Assembly: GCA_951406725.2 (NCBI GenBank)
Contig: OX597825.1
Location: forward strand, 41,602,001 to 41,666,000
Source of the DNA: Octopus vulgaris
Taxonomy: Eukaryota
Reading direction: 5' to 3'
DNA length: 64,000 nt
This document shows, piece by piece, positions 25,392 to 62,163 of the stretch (the stretch's first letter is position 1; each line of letters starts with the position of its first letter). The translations under genes were made by a program, and so were the position numbers. The notes under the pieces are model-generated. The model did no database searches. It worked only from the letters and a program-made list of their open reading frames with translations, and was not told where the DNA came from.

Positions 25392-27966
25392 GTTTAGCAT
25401 CCACTTTCCATGCTGGCATGGGTTGGACGGTGCAACTGGGGTCTGGGAAGCCAGAAGGCTGCACCAGGCCCAGTCTGATCTGGCAATGTTTCTATGGCTG
25501 GATGCCCTTCCTAATGCCAACCACTCCATGTGTGTCGTGGGTGCTTTTTACGTGCCAGACGAGTCTGGCAAATGTCCACGATCAAATGGTGTTTTTTACG
25601 TGCCACCAGCACGGAGGCCAGGTGAGGCTGGCAACGGCCATGATTGGATGGTGCTTTTTACGTGCCACCGGCACGGAAGCCAGTCGGGGCGTCGCTGGCA
25701 CGGCCACGTTTGGATGGTTCTCTTATGTGCCACCAGCACTGGTATCACAGCTACAATTTCCATTGATGTTGATCGATTTCGCTTTTGATTTCACTTGCAT
25801 CAACAGGTCTTCGCAAGTAGGGTTTTGTGTCCCAAGAAGGAAAGGTATGCATAGGTGGACTGAGGCCATGTGTTATGGTCTCACTTGTCCTGCCGAGTCT
25901 TCTCATACACAGCATACTTCCAAAGGTCTCGGTCTCTAGACATTTCCTCGGTGAGACCTAAAGTTCGAAGGTCGTGCTTCACCACCTCGTCCCAGGTTTT
26001 CCTGGGTCTGCCTCTTCCACAGGTTCCCTCAACCACTAGGGTGTGGCACTTTTTCACACAACTATCTTCATCCATTCTCGCCACATGACCATACCAGCAC
26101 AAACGTCTCTCTTGCACACCACAACTGATGCTTCTTAGGTCCAACTTACCTCGCAAGGTACTTACACTCTGTTGAGTATGAACACTGACATTACACATCC
26201 ATCAGAGCATACTGGCTTCATTTCTTGCGAGTTTACACATATCCTCAGCAGTCACAGCCTATGTTTCACTGCCATGTAGCATGGCTGTTCGTATACATGC
26301 GTCATACAGTCTGCCTTTTACTCTGAGCGAGAGGCCTTTTATCCCTAGCAGAGGTAAGAGCTCTCTGAACTTTGCCCAGGCTATTCTTACTCTAGCAGTT
26401 ACACTTTCAACACACCCGCCCCCGCTACTGACTTGGTCACCTAGGTAATGGAAGCTATCAACTACTTCTAGTTTTTCTCCCTGGAATGTGGTGGAGGTTG
26501 CTCTCTGCGCATTTTCAGTGTTTATTGCTCCTGAGCATCTGCCACATACAAAATTATCTTCCTAGTTAGCTTTTCCTTGACGTTGCTGCACCTTTTATGT
26601 GTCCATAGCTTACACTTGGTGCATCTTATTGAGTTTCTACCTATGCCTTTTCTACTGATCGAGCAGGGCCATCTACCTGAAGGGATTTGTGGTTTGTCTG
26701 CCTTTCTACTAATTAGGACTTTGGTTTTAGCTAGGTTGACTCTAAGGCCCTTCGATTCTAATCCTTGCTTCCACACCTGAAACTTCTCCTCCAGTTTTGA
26801 TAGTGACTCAGCAATTAGAGCAAGGTCATCAGCGTAGAGGTGGTCCCAGGGGCATCCTGTCTTGAATTCCTCCGTTATTGCCTGGAGGACTATGATAAAT
26901 AGGAGGGGGCTGAGGACTGAACCCTGGTGGACCCCTACCTCTACCCAGATTTCTTCACTGTACTCGTTGCCAACCCTCACCTTACTAGCAGCGTCCCTGT
27001 ACATGGCTTGCACAGCTCTCACTAACCATTCATCTATCCCTAGTTTCGTCATTGACTACCAGATAAGGGATCAGGAGACCCTGTCGAAGGCTTTCTCCAT
27101 GACAACGAAATCCAGGTACAGGGGCTTATCTTTGGCTAGATATTTCTCATGCAGCTGTCTTACCAGGAATATGGCATCAGTGGTGCTTTTCCCTGGCACG
27201 AACCCAAACTGCATCTCATCTAAACTAACTCTCTCTCTAATTAATTAGTTACCCTCTCCGTAACCTTCATTACCTGATCCAACAGCTTGATACCTCTGTA
27301 ATTATTTGTATCAAGGGCATCACTTTTACCTTTGTAGCAGTTGACTAGTATGCTGCTACACCAGTCATTGGGTATGACTCCTTCGTGTATCACCTGGTTA
27401 ACTATACGGGTGACTAGGCTATAGCCAACACTACCAGATATTTTGAGCATCTCTGCAGTAATTCCTGATAGGCCAAGGGCTTTCCCTGTCTTCATACTCT
27501 TAATTGCCTTAACTACCAAGGAACTGCCAACTCGGATAGCTGGTCTCTCTGTTGGGTCGACATTCTGCAGACTCTCTTTATCCCATTCATTTTCTTTATT
27601 CGGCAACCTTTCATAGTGGCATCTCCAAACCTCTCTCTTTGCATCCTTATTTAGCACAAGTGAACCATCATCCATGCAAACACATTTCTCTCCTACCACA
27701 TCATGATTCTCTCTCACACACTGTCTCGCAACGCGAAATACCTCAAGTTTTTAGTCCTCACGGCGCAGAACATTGGTAAATTTTTTCTCTGCTTCCCCTC
27801 TGGCTAAATAAACCTGTCTCCTAGCTTCTCTTTTGGCAGTCTGATACAATTCCCTACTACCCCCATTCTTCCAGTCCTTCCAAGCCTGTCTCTTTTCTCT
27901 AATAGCCCTGTCTACAACATTGTTCTACCACCACGTTATTTTAGGTCGAGAGGGGACTTTGCACCA
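25358..27966 (-). mobile_element. 5'-truncated RTE LINE (RT, PHD-like finger, 3' UTR, (GAT)n tail), disrupted
   Basis: NYRGIKLL, QFGFVPG, GVHQGSVLSPLLF, LYADD, GRGRPRKTW; (CAT)n at 25358-25391. Confidence 0.95.
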
Positions 27967-27983
27967 TATATATATACATATAT

Positions 27984-28310
27984 ATGTAAGGTATACTAGC
28001 CATCTCAATATGGCTAACCACTAAGGTTAAGTGTTACTGTAGCTTGTAGCCCCAAGAGAACATCGTCTCCAGCTGGCTTTAGGCACACTTTCTGTGACCT
28101 TATGGTATTTGCAAAGGGAGGTCATCCCTCTCTTTGCAAATACCATAAGGGCACAGAAAGTGTGCCTAAAGCCAGCTGGAGACGATGTTCTCCTGGGGCT
28201 ACAAGCTACAGTAACACCCACCCTTAGTGGTTAGGCATATTGAGATGGCTAGTATACCTCACATTGTCGTGCAATTACTGTTTACATCTCGTTCAGAGAT
28301 TTATTATTGC
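27984..28310. mobile_element. Palindromic/fold-back repeat, copy 2 (~280-bp hairpin)
   Basis: 27984-28121 is the near-perfect reverse complement of 28127-28264 with a 5-nt loop; 28265-28310 matches 4403-4448 inverted. Confidence 0.9.
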
Positions 28311-39141: not shown

Positions 39142-41045
39142 TGTTGTGTAAGAGTATGACACCCCCTGATGAGAATGGACTAGACCACTACATACAAATA
39201 GTAGCAGTCTGAATTAGTGATGTAGTTCATGCTAGTTCCACAGTTCGTGTGTTGAGGTTGTTGTGTGTTGATTTCACTCCCATGTAAGTTATTGCTTTGT
39301 TAATTTGAATTAATGTATTGTTGAATTACTGAATTGCTGAATATGGTGTTGAATTTGTGATTTTTGAATTGTTGAAGATTTTATTTGGCTTCCCTATTTG
39401 TGAGTGAAGTGGTGAATAATGGAATTATGAATACGCAGGTCCAGACAGGCAGTTATGCTGCAGTAACAGCCAAAAGCCTGACAGCTGAGATACTGCAGAT
39501 ATGTAAACTGGAAGTAAAAGACATGGACTACAAGAAATTTGATACCTTGTTGAAGAAGGAAGGAGGATGCCTAAGATTAACACCCCACAAGGAAGTAAGA
39601 GAGAAGACAGAAAGAAAAATAATTACTTACTGAACGTTAAATATAGCGACAAGGAAGGTGGAAATAGCAGGCGTTGAAGCGATAGGGGAATGTTTAAAGG
39701 CCGTAAAAGAAGTAACTGCATTCTATAACAGAAGAGGAAAGTTTGGCACAGTGGAGATACTCTTTGTTAATGAGAACGAAGCAAAGAAATACTCCACCGT
39801 AGCCTTGAAATCAGCACAGTGGGCGCTGTTACCTACTTACTGTGGCCAGAGTGAGGATAGGGAGAGTGCCACCTGAAATTAATGAGGACTGGCTTGTGGC
39901 AGCCATCCTCTATAATACAGAGAAGAAAGCTGAGATACTGAAAATGTTAAAGACTGCAGAGGTCAACTGATGGGGGTATCGCCTGGAAGTGATGCTACAT
40001 ATCAGCCTGCCTGACCTCCATAAGGTTGCAGAAGAAATAATACTTCCCGATGAAACCAGACTAAGAATCATGGTGGAGGGTAGACCACCAATATGTTTCG
40101 AATGTGGAGTAAGCGGGCACTGAAGGCAAAGTGTCCCCAGAAACACGAACAGAAGGTGGTGGAGAAGGAGTGTCAAGAAGAAGTAAATGTAATAACAGAG
40201 AAGGAAGTAGAGTTCACTGAGGTAGAGAAGAGAGGAAATGGTGAATCTCCACCGAAAAAGAAAAAAAAAGAAAAGCAGAGAAAAAGGAAGAAAGAAAAAA
40301 ATGAAGCAATGGGAGAACAAACACAAGGCCTGGAGCCTTCAACAAGTAAGGAGGAGGGACAGAAGGAACTGGAAGATGAGACAGAAACACCAGCAATAGG
40401 GTCAGAGAATGAAGAGAGAAGGCCACTTAAAGGAAAACACAAAAGATGTACAAGAAAAGTGTAAAAATAGAAAAATAAACTGCAAAAATGAAAGGTGTAA
40501 TAAGAGTGCGATTGGCAGATAGGGAGGAGAATAGAAGCATGAAAGCAGTGTTGCTGGATGACGAAAGGGCAGCTAGACTGAAAGAGACATTTGGAAGTAG
40601 AGTTGATAATACACCATTACAGGTTCGATATTATGAATTACCACCAGTGATAAATTTTGAAGATCTAATGTTTTCTTTGTTGTAAACAAGATACAAACTG
40701 AATTGTAAAAGATAAATGGAACTTTCTACTTTGGTGGGTAGAAAGCCATTTCATCATCATAATTTTTCCACCTCATAATTCATTCGTTAATTGTTATATG
40801 TACTCCACGTTTGTGTTGTCTGTCCTTGGAATGTCCCTTCTATATATAAGGCTTTATGTCTATAATAAAGAGAAATGTTCCACAGTTCATGTGTTGATAG
40901 TTTAAAGTTTACAGTTCAAGTTAGCATATTGGATTGTTAGTTCTTAAAAGTTTGTTGTAACATTCCATGTGGTTACTGCCTTTTGTTTCGATTATCTTGT
41001 CATTACACAGTTGCAGTGTATTCATTTATCCATAAGGATATAACA
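39142..41045 (+). promoter_or_regulatory. Putative gypsy 5' LTR, split by a 1.6-kb insertion
   Basis: TGTTG start (39142), ATAACA end (41045), PBS-like TGGTGACAAG at 41048, gag at 41102; ~260 bp once the insert is removed. Confidence 0.6.
39256..40876 (+). mobile_element. ORF1-only L1/Tx1-derived (HAL1-like) non-autonomous retroelement
   Basis: SYAAV start, RVRIGRVPPEI, VEGRPPICFECGVSGH/LKAKC knuckle (frameshifted), K/E-rich tail, 3' hairpin 40722-40745, AATAAA at 40864; 21-bp flanking repeats 39235-39255 / 40877-40897; no ORF2 motifs. Confidence 0.75.
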
Positions 41046-41101
41046 TCTGGTGACAAGGCTTTTTCAAAACTCACATTGGTTATTTTGACAATTTCTCCAT
41101 C

Positions 41102-42083
41102 ATGGAAAACCTATTAGCTGCAGTAGTACAGCTTCAAGAGAAGCAACAGAAACAACTACAGGAGCTGCAAAAACAGATACTACAACAACAATTAATTGCG
41201 TTACAGTTGGCGATGTCTGAAAATCCAGTAAGCTCGTTTATGCCAGATGGCATGGTTGACACAATTTCTGAATTTACGTATAATCCAGAAGAGAGTATTA
41301 TGTTTCCTGTGTATTACAGAAGATATGAGGAAATGTTTAACAATGAGTACAAGTCATGGTCGGAGGAGCAGAAAGTAAGGTTTTTACTATGCGAGATTGC
41401 CCCTGTCAAGCATGAGTATTACTGCAATGTTATTCTAACCCAAATTAAGTACTTAGGGCAAATAATTGATAAAAGTGGTAGACGTCCTGATCCATCGAGG
41501 ACAGATGCAATAAGGGATATTCCAACTTTACAAGCATTTCTTGAACTGGAAAACTACTACTAAAACTACATTCCTAACATGCAGAAGTCAAGAGCTCCCT
41601 TGAACGACTTATTAAAGATGGAGTAAAGTGGAACTGGTCCACTAAATGCTAGATCACATATGAAGAAATAATATTCTAATCTCAGACCTGTCATTAGCAC
41701 ATTACGAACCCGAGATGAACACCATTGTAGCATCTGATGCTTCTGAACATGGATTAGGTGCAGTTCTACTTCATAAATATGAAGATGGAAGTACAAAACC
41801 AGTGGTTCAGGCTTCACACTTACTGATAGCAGCAGAGAAGAGATATAGTGAAATTGAAAAGGAGGCCCTAACAATTATTTTTGCAGTTAAAAAGTTTCAC
41901 AGGTTTCTACATGGTAGAAAGGTTTTTATTACATACAGACCATAAATCTTTGCTGTTGATCTATGCATAAAAAAAATATTACCAACTCATACTGCGAACC
42001 ACTTGCAATGTTAGGGTGTAATATTACTAAATTATAATTTGAAAACGCAAAATATTACATAGAAAAATATTGGTCATGCAGAG
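41102..42083 (+). mobile_element. Internally deleted Mag-like gypsy (gag N-terminus fused to RT end, RNase H)
   Basis: FTYNPEESIMFPVYYRRYE joined to IKYLGQII; VASDASEHGLGAVL, YSEIEKEAL, KKFHRFLHG. Confidence 0.9.
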
Positions 42084-48010: not shown

Positions 48011-48043
<33 letters not shown>

Positions 48044-48477
48044 TTCATTTTTGGATTTGGTTTGCAAGATTCTTTATGTGTGTTCGTGTGTTGAAGCATA
48101 TTCTGTCGTGTCTGGGAGAGTCATTCTCTTTTAGTGCCTTATAATTTAACAGACTCACTGGTAAAATATCTACTCATTTCCTTCTTTATTTTTCTAAAAT
48201 TTTCGTTATCTTGCAACCATTTCCATATTGAAGAGGCTGCAAGACAAAGTTTTCTGGCTGCTGACAAATTTTCTTGCTATATAAAAAAAAAAAAGAATTT
48301 TATATATATATATATATATACTCCTCAGTATCTACGCATTGAATAAAATTTATCTTTCTGCTTGTTCAACAATACATTTTAATGCTTCAAAAACAAACAT
48401 ATGACATAATCAATATGACATCTAGTGTTCCTGGATGATTCTATAACTTCTTAAATTGCCGAAAGGTCTGGTGATCA

Positions 48478-58414: not shown

Positions 58415-61400
58415 TTACCGCTTAAATGTTTGAACCTATCCACTAACCTGCTTGTTCTTTTCTTTCTCCACAAAATTTAATCCTTTAATTCTTTTAAACC
58501 CCCCCGGTATAAAAGTTAATTCGTTCGTTTCTCTATGCTACCCTTTCCAACCCCGAAGATCTTCGCCATTTCGCCATTCGCGGTGCGCCCGTCCTTTCCC
58601 ACCCCACCACCAATACCGGGGAACACTGTTCACACCATCTACACCGGATATGTCCTCCCCACCACCATTACGTGTGTCTATTCCTCCTACCCCTCCTCCT
58701 CACATGCTTTTCACTATGTATTACCCCTGCCTCTCCCCCCCAAGACAGAAGCAGCTAGCGCCGCAGCTCATCAAACGTCCCACTTATCTTATGTTTCCTC
58801 CTGTTTTGAAATCTGTCACTGCCTCAACCGGCTAACTCCTTCCAGTCCCCCTCCCCCACTCGTGATATCCTACGTTTTTATTTCCTACGTTTCATTCTGT
58901 CTAGAACCTGCACCAACCCTACCTGTCATCGTTCCTCCTTACCCCAACCCTCCCCACTGGTGCTTCCCTATATTACCTGCACAACCCCCCCACTTTCTCT
59001 CCCTCTCCCTCTCTTTTCACTGGTGGAACCTTTCTCAGCTGGAACCCCCCAACCCAACTCTAGAATATCCATGTTTCTGCTACGCTGCCTAATTACGTTA
59101 CTCAGTGACGATAATGCTTGCTTAGAATGCTACTAACACCTAGAATTTCAGCATTTCTGCCACATCTACATCATCAATGACCTTAATGCTTATGCCTACA
59201 ACGCTGCTAACACCGGCTCCTGCCCACGGCAGGGGCCACAATCTTAACATGCCTAAATGCTTGAATATTGTCAGGTCGGAAGAGAGATCAGAAGAGAGAT
59301 CAGATGAAAAATGCCACGAAAACGATCACCACCACAACAACCCTCTTCTTCTCAGGTGCTGAATTGCTCCCTTCCTCCCCACATCTCCTTCCCAGTTTTC
59401 AGAGTTGGCACTGTCAATGTTGGTACATTGAAAGGTAGGTCTAGTGAGATTGTAGAGATGCTTGAGAGAAGACAGGTTGATGTATGCTGCATACAAGAGG
59501 TAAGATGGAGAGGTGCTTCAGCTAGGGTCCTCACAGGCAAGGCACTTAGGTACAAAGTCTTCTGGCAAGGTAACATGGAAGGTGTAGGGGGTGTAGGAGA
59601 AATGGGTGGATAAGGTCATAGAGATTGTCAGGGTTTGTGATAGAGTGCTTAAGCTCAGGTTGGTCCTACAGAGTGGCACAGCTACGATTATCTCCGCCTA
59701 TGCCCCACAAGCGGGACTACCAAATGATCAGAAGGACCACTTTTATGATACCCTTCTACAAGCGACTTCAAAGACTAGTGGCAAGGACCTCATCTTTGTG
59801 GGTGGAGACATTAATGGGCATGTTGGGCGGGAATCGGGTATCTTCACTGGGGTACACGGTGGCCATGGTATTGGCACCAGAAATGATGAGGGAACTAGAC
59901 TACTGGAATTCTGTGATGCATGTAACCTTTTAATCTGCAACACTAACTTCAAGAAGCCTGACTGCCACCTTATAACCTATCAGTCAGGAGACTCCACTAG
60001 CCAAATAGACTTCATCCTCACCAGACAGCGGGATGCAGGGTTGCTCTTGAATACAAAGACCCTCCTGGGTGAAGAATGTATCCCTCAGCATACACTAATC
60101 ATCAGTGACTTTAAGCTTGAGGCCAGAAGGACTCCAAGAAACAAACCAATCCAGAAAAGAAGGATTTGGAAGCTAAAGAACCCTTCACATGGTCAGAGAT
60201 TTAGGGACATCCTCATCAAGAAATTTGATGAGAGGGAGGAGGAGCTTCAGACGTCGGACATAGAAGGTAGCTGGGAATTCCTATGGAACAGCTTGCTGAG
60301 TGCCACAGACCGAGTCTGTGGATGGTGCTAAGTCCCTTCCAGACCTAGAGTTATGTAGTGGTGGAAAAGTGCAGTAGACAAAGCCATTAGTGCAAAGAGA
60401 CAGGCCTGGAAAGGCTGGAGGGATGGGGTAGCAGGGAACTGTACCAGGTAGCCAAAAGGGAGGCTGGGCGGCAGGTATACATAGCCAAAGATGTAGCAGA
60501 AAAGAAGAAGTTTGCCAATGTCCAGCGACGTGAGGACCAAAGAGCTGAGGTATTTCGGATTGCCAGACTGTGTGTGAGAGAAAATAGTGATGTTACAGGA
60601 GAGAAATGTGTCCGCATGGATGATGGGGCACTTGCTTTTACTGTTGGTGAAAAGAAAGAAGCTTGGAGAAGCCATTATGAAAGACTGCTGAATGAGGAGA
60701 ATGAATGGGAGGAGGAGAGCCTGCCAAATGTTGACCCAGTGGAGGGACCAGCTACCCGAATAGACAGCTCCCTTGTAGTTAAGGCAATTAAGGATATGAA
60801 ACCAGGTAAAGCCCCCGGCCCATCAGGAATCACTGCTGAGATGCTTAAAACAGCTGGCTATGTGGGCTATGGCCTAGTCACCTGCATTGTAAACCAGGTA
60901 GTTCATAATGGAGTCATACCCAATGACTGGCGTAGCAGCACCATAGTCAACTGATACAAGGGTAAGGGTAATGCTCTAGATAGAAATAACTACAGGGGTA
61001 TTAAACTGTTGGATCAGGTGATGGTCACAGAGAGGGTCATAACCCATCTCATTAGGGAGAGAATTTGCTTAGATGAGATGCAGTTCGGTTTTGTGCCAGG
61101 TAGAAGCACCACTGATGCTATATTCCTGGTCCGACAACTGCAGAAGTACCTAGCTAAAGATAAACCCCTCTACATAGCTTTTGTGGACTGGGAGAAAGCC
61201 TTTGACAGGGTTCCCCGTTCCCTTATCTGGTGGTCGATGCAGAAACTGGAGATTGATGAATGGCTAATAAGGGCTGTACAGGCTCTATACAGAGAGGCTG
61301 TCAGCAAGGTTAGGATTGGCAATGAATATAGTGAAGAATTCCGGGTGGAAGTAGGTGTGCACCAAGGCTCAGCCCTCAGTCCCCTTTTATTCATAATAGT

Positions 61401-62163
61401 CGTCCAGGCAATAACAGAGGAATTCAAAACAGGATGCCCCTGGGAGCTCCTCTATGCTGATGACCTGGCTCTCATCGCAGAATCACTACCGGAACTAGAA
61501 AAGAAATTTCGGGTGTGGAAGCAAGGGTTAGAATCAAAGGGCCTTAGAGTAAATGTAGCAAAGACCAAAGTTATAGTAAGCAGAAAGGCGAACTCAGCAC
61601 ACACACCCTCAGGCAGGTGGCCTTGCTCGATCTGTAGGAAAGGTGTAGGTAGAAACTCCATAAGATGCACCCAATGTAAGCTATGGACGCATAAGAGGTG
61701 CAGCAACATTAAAGGGAAATTAACTGATAAGATAGCTTTTATGTGCGGCAGATGCACAGGGACAATAGACACCACAGACACTCAGAAAACAGATTCCGTC
61801 ACACTCCAGGGGGAGAAACTAGAAGTAGTTGATAGTTTCCACTACCTGGGTGACCAAGTTAGTAGTGGAGGTGGATGCACAGAGAGGCTATTCGTATGCA
61901 CCACTAGAATACGAATAGCCTGGGCAAAGTTCAGAAAGCTCCTACCTCTACTGGCGACAAAGGGTCTCTCGCTCAGAGTGAAAGGTAGATTGTATGATGC
62001 ATGTGTGCGAACTGCCATACTTCACGGTAGACTTGAAAGAAATGAAGCTAGCATGATCCGCTGGATGTGTAATATCAGTGTGCATGCACGACAGAGTGTA
62101 AGCACCCTGAGAGAAATGCTGGATATAAGAAGCATCAGATGTGGTGTGCAAGAGCGACGCTTG
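58415..62163 (+). mobile_element. Near-full-length RTE LINE (C-rich 5' region, APE, RT, PHD-like finger), 3' end lost
   Basis: RVGTVNVGTL..CIQEVRW, SAYAPQ, GDINGHVG, QIDFIL, NYRGIKLL, QFGFVPGRSTTDAIF, KAFDRV, HQGSALSP, YADD; several stops and frameshifts. Confidence 0.95.

Follow-up and report, generated by a model that had tools for sequence, protein, structure and literature searches.

A decayed ORF1-only retroelement in a gypsy LTR of Octopus vulgaris belongs to a family that probably inserts behind the TATA boxes of unrelated repeats

In the present study, a gypsy LTR interrupted by a non-LTR retroelement was characterized in the window (the whole stretch of Octopus vulgaris DNA analysed, 64,000 nucleotides; the element and its host LTR lie on its forward strand). 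The inserted unit (39256..40876) is a full-length but decayed ORF1-only element of the L1/Tx1 group, with the same ends as other copies in its own genome. It had been predicted from the sequence as a decayed ORF1-only unit of about 1.62 kb within a 21-bp direct repeat, and both points were borne out. Exactly two copies of the 21-mer are present in the window, at 39235..39255 (left copy, LTR-derived, TATA+42 to +62) and 40877..40897 (right copy), whereas none was expected from 100 shuffles, and 1,621 bp separate the two copies, which constitute a 21-bp target-site duplication (TSD). The ORF1 remnant (39427..40685) runs from an ATG at 39427 (MNTQVQTGSYAAV) to a stop at 40685 through two frameshifts and several stops, comprises two RRM-like domains, a CCHC knuckle, a K/E linker and a C-terminal domain, and shares 40-53% identity with an intact relative. 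The CX2CX4HX4C knuckle (40094..40134) is genuine, as had been claimed, though broken by a frameshift. The anticipated 3' stem-loop and AATAAA were likewise recovered. The hairpin in the 3' UTR (40711..40755; -17.8 kcal/mol, z -4.8) shows compensatory double changes in 5 of 13 pairs among 26 copies selected by their conserved ends, and is conserved across ORF1-only subfamilies; the AATAAA is located at 40864..40869, and the element ends 7 nt further with no poly(A) tail. Folding of the last 87 nt of the element is no more stable than that of shuffled sequences (z 0.45).

The host LTR consists of a 5' part starting with TGTT (39142..39234) and a 3' part ending with AACA (40898..41045), which are joined in empty copies. 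Its TATA box (39193..39200) is decayed, reading TACAAATA in the window and TATAAATA in most empty copies. Excision of the unit in silico gave a TGTT..AACA LTR of 262 bp (39142-41045), behind which lie a PBS-like TGG and a decayed DUF7083 gag-like frame (41046..41563; PF23309, E 2.6e-9). Of the predicted LTR of about 260 bp with PBS and gag, the LTR and a gag-like frame were restored, together with a PBS-like sequence with no tRNA match; its start recurs in other LTR copies. The TG..CA ends, the PBS-like sequence, the gag-like frame and the empty copies identify the host as a gypsy LTR element. Elsewhere in the window, an inverted repeat pair of more than 1 kb, about 80% alike (26550-27793 and 60498-61739), and a 138-nt perfect-looking hairpin (27984-28264) were also observed.

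Many genomic copies of 1.55-1.67 kb, 71-79% identical to the window unit and sharing both of its ends, were revealed by the copy search that the original prediction had called for (genome size 2.8 Gb, 227 contigs; 462 candidates, of which 40 were scored), and a tail pattern gave 217 matches versus 1 in the control. Upstream of 98 distinct tails, ORF1 was found in 42 cases and ORF2 in none, while 9 belonged to an unrelated SINE and 47 were short or too diverged. A search of the genome with ORF1 returned 12,571 candidates; intact frames of 410-510 aa end 150-400 nt ahead of the tail, and head-to-tail arrays are frequent (20 ten-kb loci). The arrays mix several families, and one locus (L117) contains a 2.1-kb unit with ORF1 and an ORF2-like similarity near its end. 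The ORF1 core showed dN/dS values of 0.06-0.17 (22 of 28 pairs, saturated pairs excluded), and the related intact ORF1s are kept by purifying selection. The matching ends, the tails devoid of ORF2 and these dN/dS values confirm the suggestion of a non-autonomous ORF1-only family. In the ORF1 tree, the window copy falls inside a 100/100 ORF1-only clade together with an Octopus bimaculoides protein, and a second ORF1-only lineage (L135:3233-4765) lies outside this main clade with weak placement. The database relatives of ORF1 were Octopus bimaculoides proteins only, apart from one knuckle-only match; in the comparison with P0004, the match is confined to the knuckle. Pfam gave no match to ORF1 pieces and matched the knuckle alone in whole ORF1s. 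The model of an intact relative predicts tandem RRMs (best match IMP3 RRM12, E 3e-5), the knuckle and, beyond a disordered linker, a folded C-terminal domain. In the ORF1-only clade, the latter domain (L120:6777-8156, residues 340-455) is confidently modelled, is not aligned in autonomous ORF1s and has no usable Atlas match; it is a candidate for a role in targeting or partner binding.

Autonomous elements that might serve as partners are present in the same genome. In these elements, a homologous ORF1 is accompanied by an ORF2 of 1,130-1,148 aa with APE, RT and a C-terminal zf-RVT, the organization of the L1/Tx1 group, and the best solved relative of ORF2 is human L1 ORF2p (E 3.5e-66). Among named proteins, the closest homologs come from fish and contain PF23057/PF23058, and Tx1-type is used here as a provisional label. 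The ORF1s of the ORF1-only and autonomous elements are 22-30% identical, with invariant columns in common, and the last ~30 nt of a young ORF1-only subfamily are common to one autonomous family. An autonomous partner with an identical 3' end, for which the original prediction had suggested a search, was not found for the window subfamily (score of 30 for its tail versus 25 autonomous tails, shuffle mean 28), and its partner is therefore one that we infer. The family probably depends on autonomous Tx1-type LINEs for copying in trans. A very common SINE, which we take to be tRNA-derived, ends in GGGT(A/G)ATAAAGAAAT, a tail as in the autonomous elements (L010, L021, L028, L040, L129, L133 and L158), and forms tandem stacks at one internal SINE site; it is probably mobilised by the same LINEs, the autonomous relatives of the ORF1-only family.

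The 21-mer is a TSD and represents target DNA, as had been supposed, since empty LTRs carry a single 21-mer and other element copies duplicate their own, unrelated target sequences. At 60 confident sites, the TSDs have a median length of 17 nt (IQR 15-20), start mostly 4-8 nt after AATAAA with poly(A) absent, and show no consensus. The notion that the 21-mer, or a promoter motif common to the targets, for instance GTTCGTGTGTTGA, is the recognition sequence was not sustained: the targets are unrelated, the 21-mer TSD was found at no element copy examined other than that in the window, and a single conserved target sequence per family, as in sequence-specific Tx1 elements, was not observed. The motif had also been reported to recur near 48082; the 13-mer match is real but sits in a very abundant unrelated repeat with no sign of targeting. 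The window segment at about 48040-48260 is a fragment of this extremely abundant repeat, which also lies beside the promoter used in L128. In L128, the single locus where the repeat adjoins an insertion, the 13-mer is on the opposite strand, ~250 bp from the site.

The host LTR family was surveyed from both sides. Among 29 other copies retrieved with the right half, 12 are empty and contiguous with one 21-mer, which answers the proposed search for empty LTRs; in 2 more, also contiguous, there is a short tail-like piece. Internal deletions affect 5 copies, one copy is preceded by unrelated DNA, and in the other 9 the LTR resumes behind the tail or ORF of a Tx1-type element. These nine resume at TATA+31..+46 and are preceded by ORF2 matches in 6 cases (L335 and L341 resemble one duplicated event), ORF1 in 2 and a short tail in 1. 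Because a right-half query favours intact right halves, the survey was repeated with the left half, which gave 29 copies, three of them in common with the first set. Four of these pass into sense ORF2 or ORF1 at TATA+29, +33, +45 and +47, and a fifth is broken at TATA+28 by a piece that was not assigned. Thirteen copies are unbroken, and 7 represent a sister LTR; four further breaks at TATA+110 to +194 had no Tx1 ORF match. No antisense Tx1 matches were found inside the LTR copies. The breakpoints from both halves, together with the absence of antisense matches, indicate that several families, full-length and truncated, use one ~20-nt stretch of the LTR in one orientation. About one in four sampled copies of this LTR family bears such an insertion, and a LINE system with such targeting would also act as a parasite of other transposons.

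The position of insertions relative to TATA motifs was then analysed across targets. A TSD could be assigned with confidence to 94 of 197 tails (not to the other 103); 28 tandem insertions were excluded and six sites were dropped (three segmental repeats, one in L313 and two in L315, and three with short flanks), leaving 60 sites in 47 clusters. The sites were drawn from the best-scoring matches, not genome-wide, unrelated-SINE tails fitting the pattern were filtered out, and targets were clustered on upstream flanks only, since tandem neighbours over-merge clusters. A TATA motif of at least 5 bits at -32..-28 from the TSD start was observed in 10.1 of 47 clusters, 6.6 of them at exactly -30, versus a background of 1.3 per interval, with a matrix taken from recall and an interval picked post hoc. 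In 5,000 rotations, the maximum at any position, a measure that adjusts for the offset only, had P = 0.0002 for the sense strand and 0.24 for the antisense strand, on which some TATA signal was seen at -32 (4.7 clusters). The usual spacing between TATA and initiator is about 30, and a TATA at -30 places the TSD start at the usual +1. The signal is carried by the full-length copies (7.1 of 26 clusters); truncated copies alone gave 3 of 21 clusters (P = 0.58 for the maximum anywhere, 0.008 at -32), and many old truncated copies lie in DNA with no sign of a promoter. For four truncated copies (L297, L137, L144 and L167), a TATA-like motif lies at -28..-30, and the flank resembles that of no other target. 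In the young subfamily, all 36 exact tails of which were listed, the resolved sites have a TATA at -28..-31 in at least five apparently unrelated targets, one of these copies being truncated, or lie behind the tail of another element; at one site, the insertion is on an initiator-like TCAGTT accompanied by only a weak TATA, and for one truncated copy there is no TSD.

Of the window subfamily, 25 5'-complete copies were considered: five are tandem, and among the other 20, 13 are located in three repeat families, including two LTR groups. These 20 sites (10 clusters) alone showed no significant cluster-level TATA enrichment; their offsets range from -33 to -41, with the window copy at about -40, ~10 nt beyond the predicted start. 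The CAGTT that had been proposed as an Inr-like initiator ~45 bp after the TATA box is 48 nt from its first T, too far for the usual spacing, and the start is therefore more likely 10-12 nt upstream of the TSD. Overall, a fixed distance from the core promoter with no sequence consensus was found in part, a strong TATA at the peak being present in only about one-fifth of the clusters. The preference is positional and leaky, not by sequence. The sense orientation, the peak in TATA offset and the LTR hotspot agree with the earlier idea of insertion at promoters of other transposable elements, the start sites being predicted ones.

Other features of the target loci were also noted. Two ORF1-only copies (L026:- and L091:-) lie ~4-5 nt inside the 5' end of the common SINE, a possible Pol III start. 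Insertion sites in L075:- and L128:- are downstream of GTCACGTGA E-box motifs, and L075 has no TATA but a TCAGTC at the TSD start, possibly representing a TATA-less promoter. Two or three target repeats (L018, L116, L119, L123, L171 and L200) have hammerhead-like CTGA(T/C)GA..GAAAC cores directly downstream of the insertion, a resemblance judged by eye in two target families; no match at the Rfam gathering threshold was found in 15 target loci.

The original prediction that the element could use the transcription of its hosts is judged likely. The 5' UTR is 170 nt long, and leaders vary among near-identical copies. One clear case is that of L305, whose second copy starts with 17 nt found at TATA+30 of an unrelated LTR-like target, as would be expected if its RNA had started at the promoter of a former target. 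In addition, the tail of the window element contains a TATA-like 8-mer (40843..40850), 32 nt before the element end. This 8-mer is present in several variants, 31-34 nt before the end, in 16 of 20 window-subfamily tails, whereas 12 of the 143 remaining ORF1-only-type tails and none of 34 from autonomous elements have it. By analogy, it would supply a normally spaced TATA to the displaced remainder of the LTR or to the next copy in an array, a function that we regard as doubtful; the 8-mer arose only once and may reflect drift of an AT-rich spacer.

Herein, we propose that the window element is a full-length, now decayed member of an ORF1-only family whose insertions are enriched in sense orientation ~30 nt (~40 nt in the window) behind the TATA of unrelated repeats, at the likely start site, and which likely borrows their promoters; we consider this explanation probable. 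An element with no promoter of its own would be transcribed, when a copy lies behind a start site, from +1 through the TSD. The ORF1p would package this RNA, and the ORF2p of a partner would nick the target and reverse-transcribe the RNA, with the initiation complex placing the first nick. Tethering to TBP or an associated factor is the most likely option for this placement, although we hold it tentatively and at less than even confidence; otherwise, the opened DNA of the start site might be cut. Since each insertion regenerates the site, later arrivals would stack head-to-tail, and a leakier route would deposit many truncated copies elsewhere. A broader version, in which a promoterless LINE lineage reads the initiation complex and inserts at +1 of any TBP-bound promoter together with its ORF1-only passengers, while the tail TATA of the window subfamily restarts the displaced LTR and offers a new landing site, appears possible but rather improbable.

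The observations might also be explained with no sensing of promoters. Copies would then be expressed only when they happened to lie behind a start, the target ends of their RNA would steer the daughters into homologous repeats by base pairing or through a sequence-tuned endonuclease, and the TATA offset would reflect selection on source copies. The concentration of targets in few repeat families, the carried-over leader and the old truncated copies in non-promoter DNA are compatible with such a process, and the lack of poly(A), with the TSD starting shortly after AATAAA, means that the RNA could extend into target sequence; that co-transcription can strengthen target specificity has been described by Kojima (PMC4494074). 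It is more difficult to reconcile with one young subfamily at at least five unrelated TATA-offset sites, with the four truncated copies behind TATA-like motifs in unique flanks, and with the use of the same ~20-nt part of the LTR by ORF1-only and autonomous families with differing tails, and we therefore regard it as unlikely. Recognition of the 21-mer itself, or of a GTTCGTGTGTTGA-like motif found in the promoters of several transposons, would account for the reuse of the LTR site by several Tx1-type elements and has precedent in Tx1 families that prefer LTRs (PMC4494074); however, a TSD unique to the window copy, the lack of a consensus among 60 TSDs and the one informative locus, where the 48082 repeat was not hit at its motif, make this very improbable. 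The decayed window copy cannot itself show activity, which would suit a private deletion of ORF2 at a chance position, and the 21-mer could in principle be a terminal repeat of the element. A private deletion was ruled out by the many copies sharing both ends and the purifying selection on ORF1-only relatives, and with the empty LTRs carrying a single 21-mer, neither possibility is realistically credible.

The preferred explanation, insertion behind the TATA of unrelated repeats, can be compared with several known systems. HAL1 (half-L1) elements are non-autonomous, encode ORF1p only and have originated repeatedly (PMC5753468). The octopus family resembles HAL1 in encoding only ORF1, which is homologous to that of autonomous elements and under selection, in being retrotransposed with TSDs, and in forming one large clade plus a second lineage (L135). 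Unlike HAL1, it has a Tx1-type ORF1 (tandem RRM and CCHC) with an extra C-terminal domain, no poly(A), positional targeting and tandem arrays. Tx1, Tx1-Mar, Tx1-8_Crp, Tx1-4_AMi and SINEU-3 insert into transposons, including LTR elements, their tandem copies sandwich a TSD, and transcription from the flank has been proposed (PMC4494074). Each of these elements, as described, has one target family, whereas the octopus subfamily has many unrelated targets at a fixed TATA distance. The targeting of LINEs is usually explained by the sequence preference of the endonuclease. The model for position-specific insertion of a LINE through TBP is TRE5-A of Dictyostelium, for which 80% of insertions occur within 47+/-3 bp of tRNA genes; the ORF1 protein of TRE5-A binds TBP in vitro, and a non-autonomous partner exists (PMC5391098). 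TRE5-A, however, inserts upstream of Pol III genes, whereas the octopus family lies in sense orientation at or just after the predicted start of mostly TATA promoters of repeats. Insertions of P and Mu peak within 50 bp of transcription starts (PMC7337890), and Ty3 targets Pol III starts (PMC6673722); these are transposase or integrase elements, unlike the LINE-type octopus family, and the table of strategies in PMC7337890 has no LINE entry. Drosophila HeT-A, at chromosome ends, differs in location from the octopus family, whose tail TATA is a putative promoter only. HeT-A is also an ORF1-only element. It forms mixed head-to-tail arrays in which a 3' UTR promoter drives the downstream element (PMC2615633). 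No report of a LINE with a fixed TATA offset was found in our literature search. In the main text of an Octopus repeat annotation (PMC13282606), the words "target" and "promoter" are absent; its supplements and repeat library, as well as Repbase, may already contain these families. If the proposed explanation is true, the family would be a Pol II counterpart to TRE5-A, inserting at TATA+30 of unrelated promoters, would account for the way in which Tx1 elements move from one target repeat to another, unrelated one, and would label those start sites of the octopus genome that are active in the germline; the young intact autonomous and ORF1-only copies make tethering directly testable. The structure of the family is explained by HAL1, and the preference of Tx1 families for transposons, including LTRs, is already in print.
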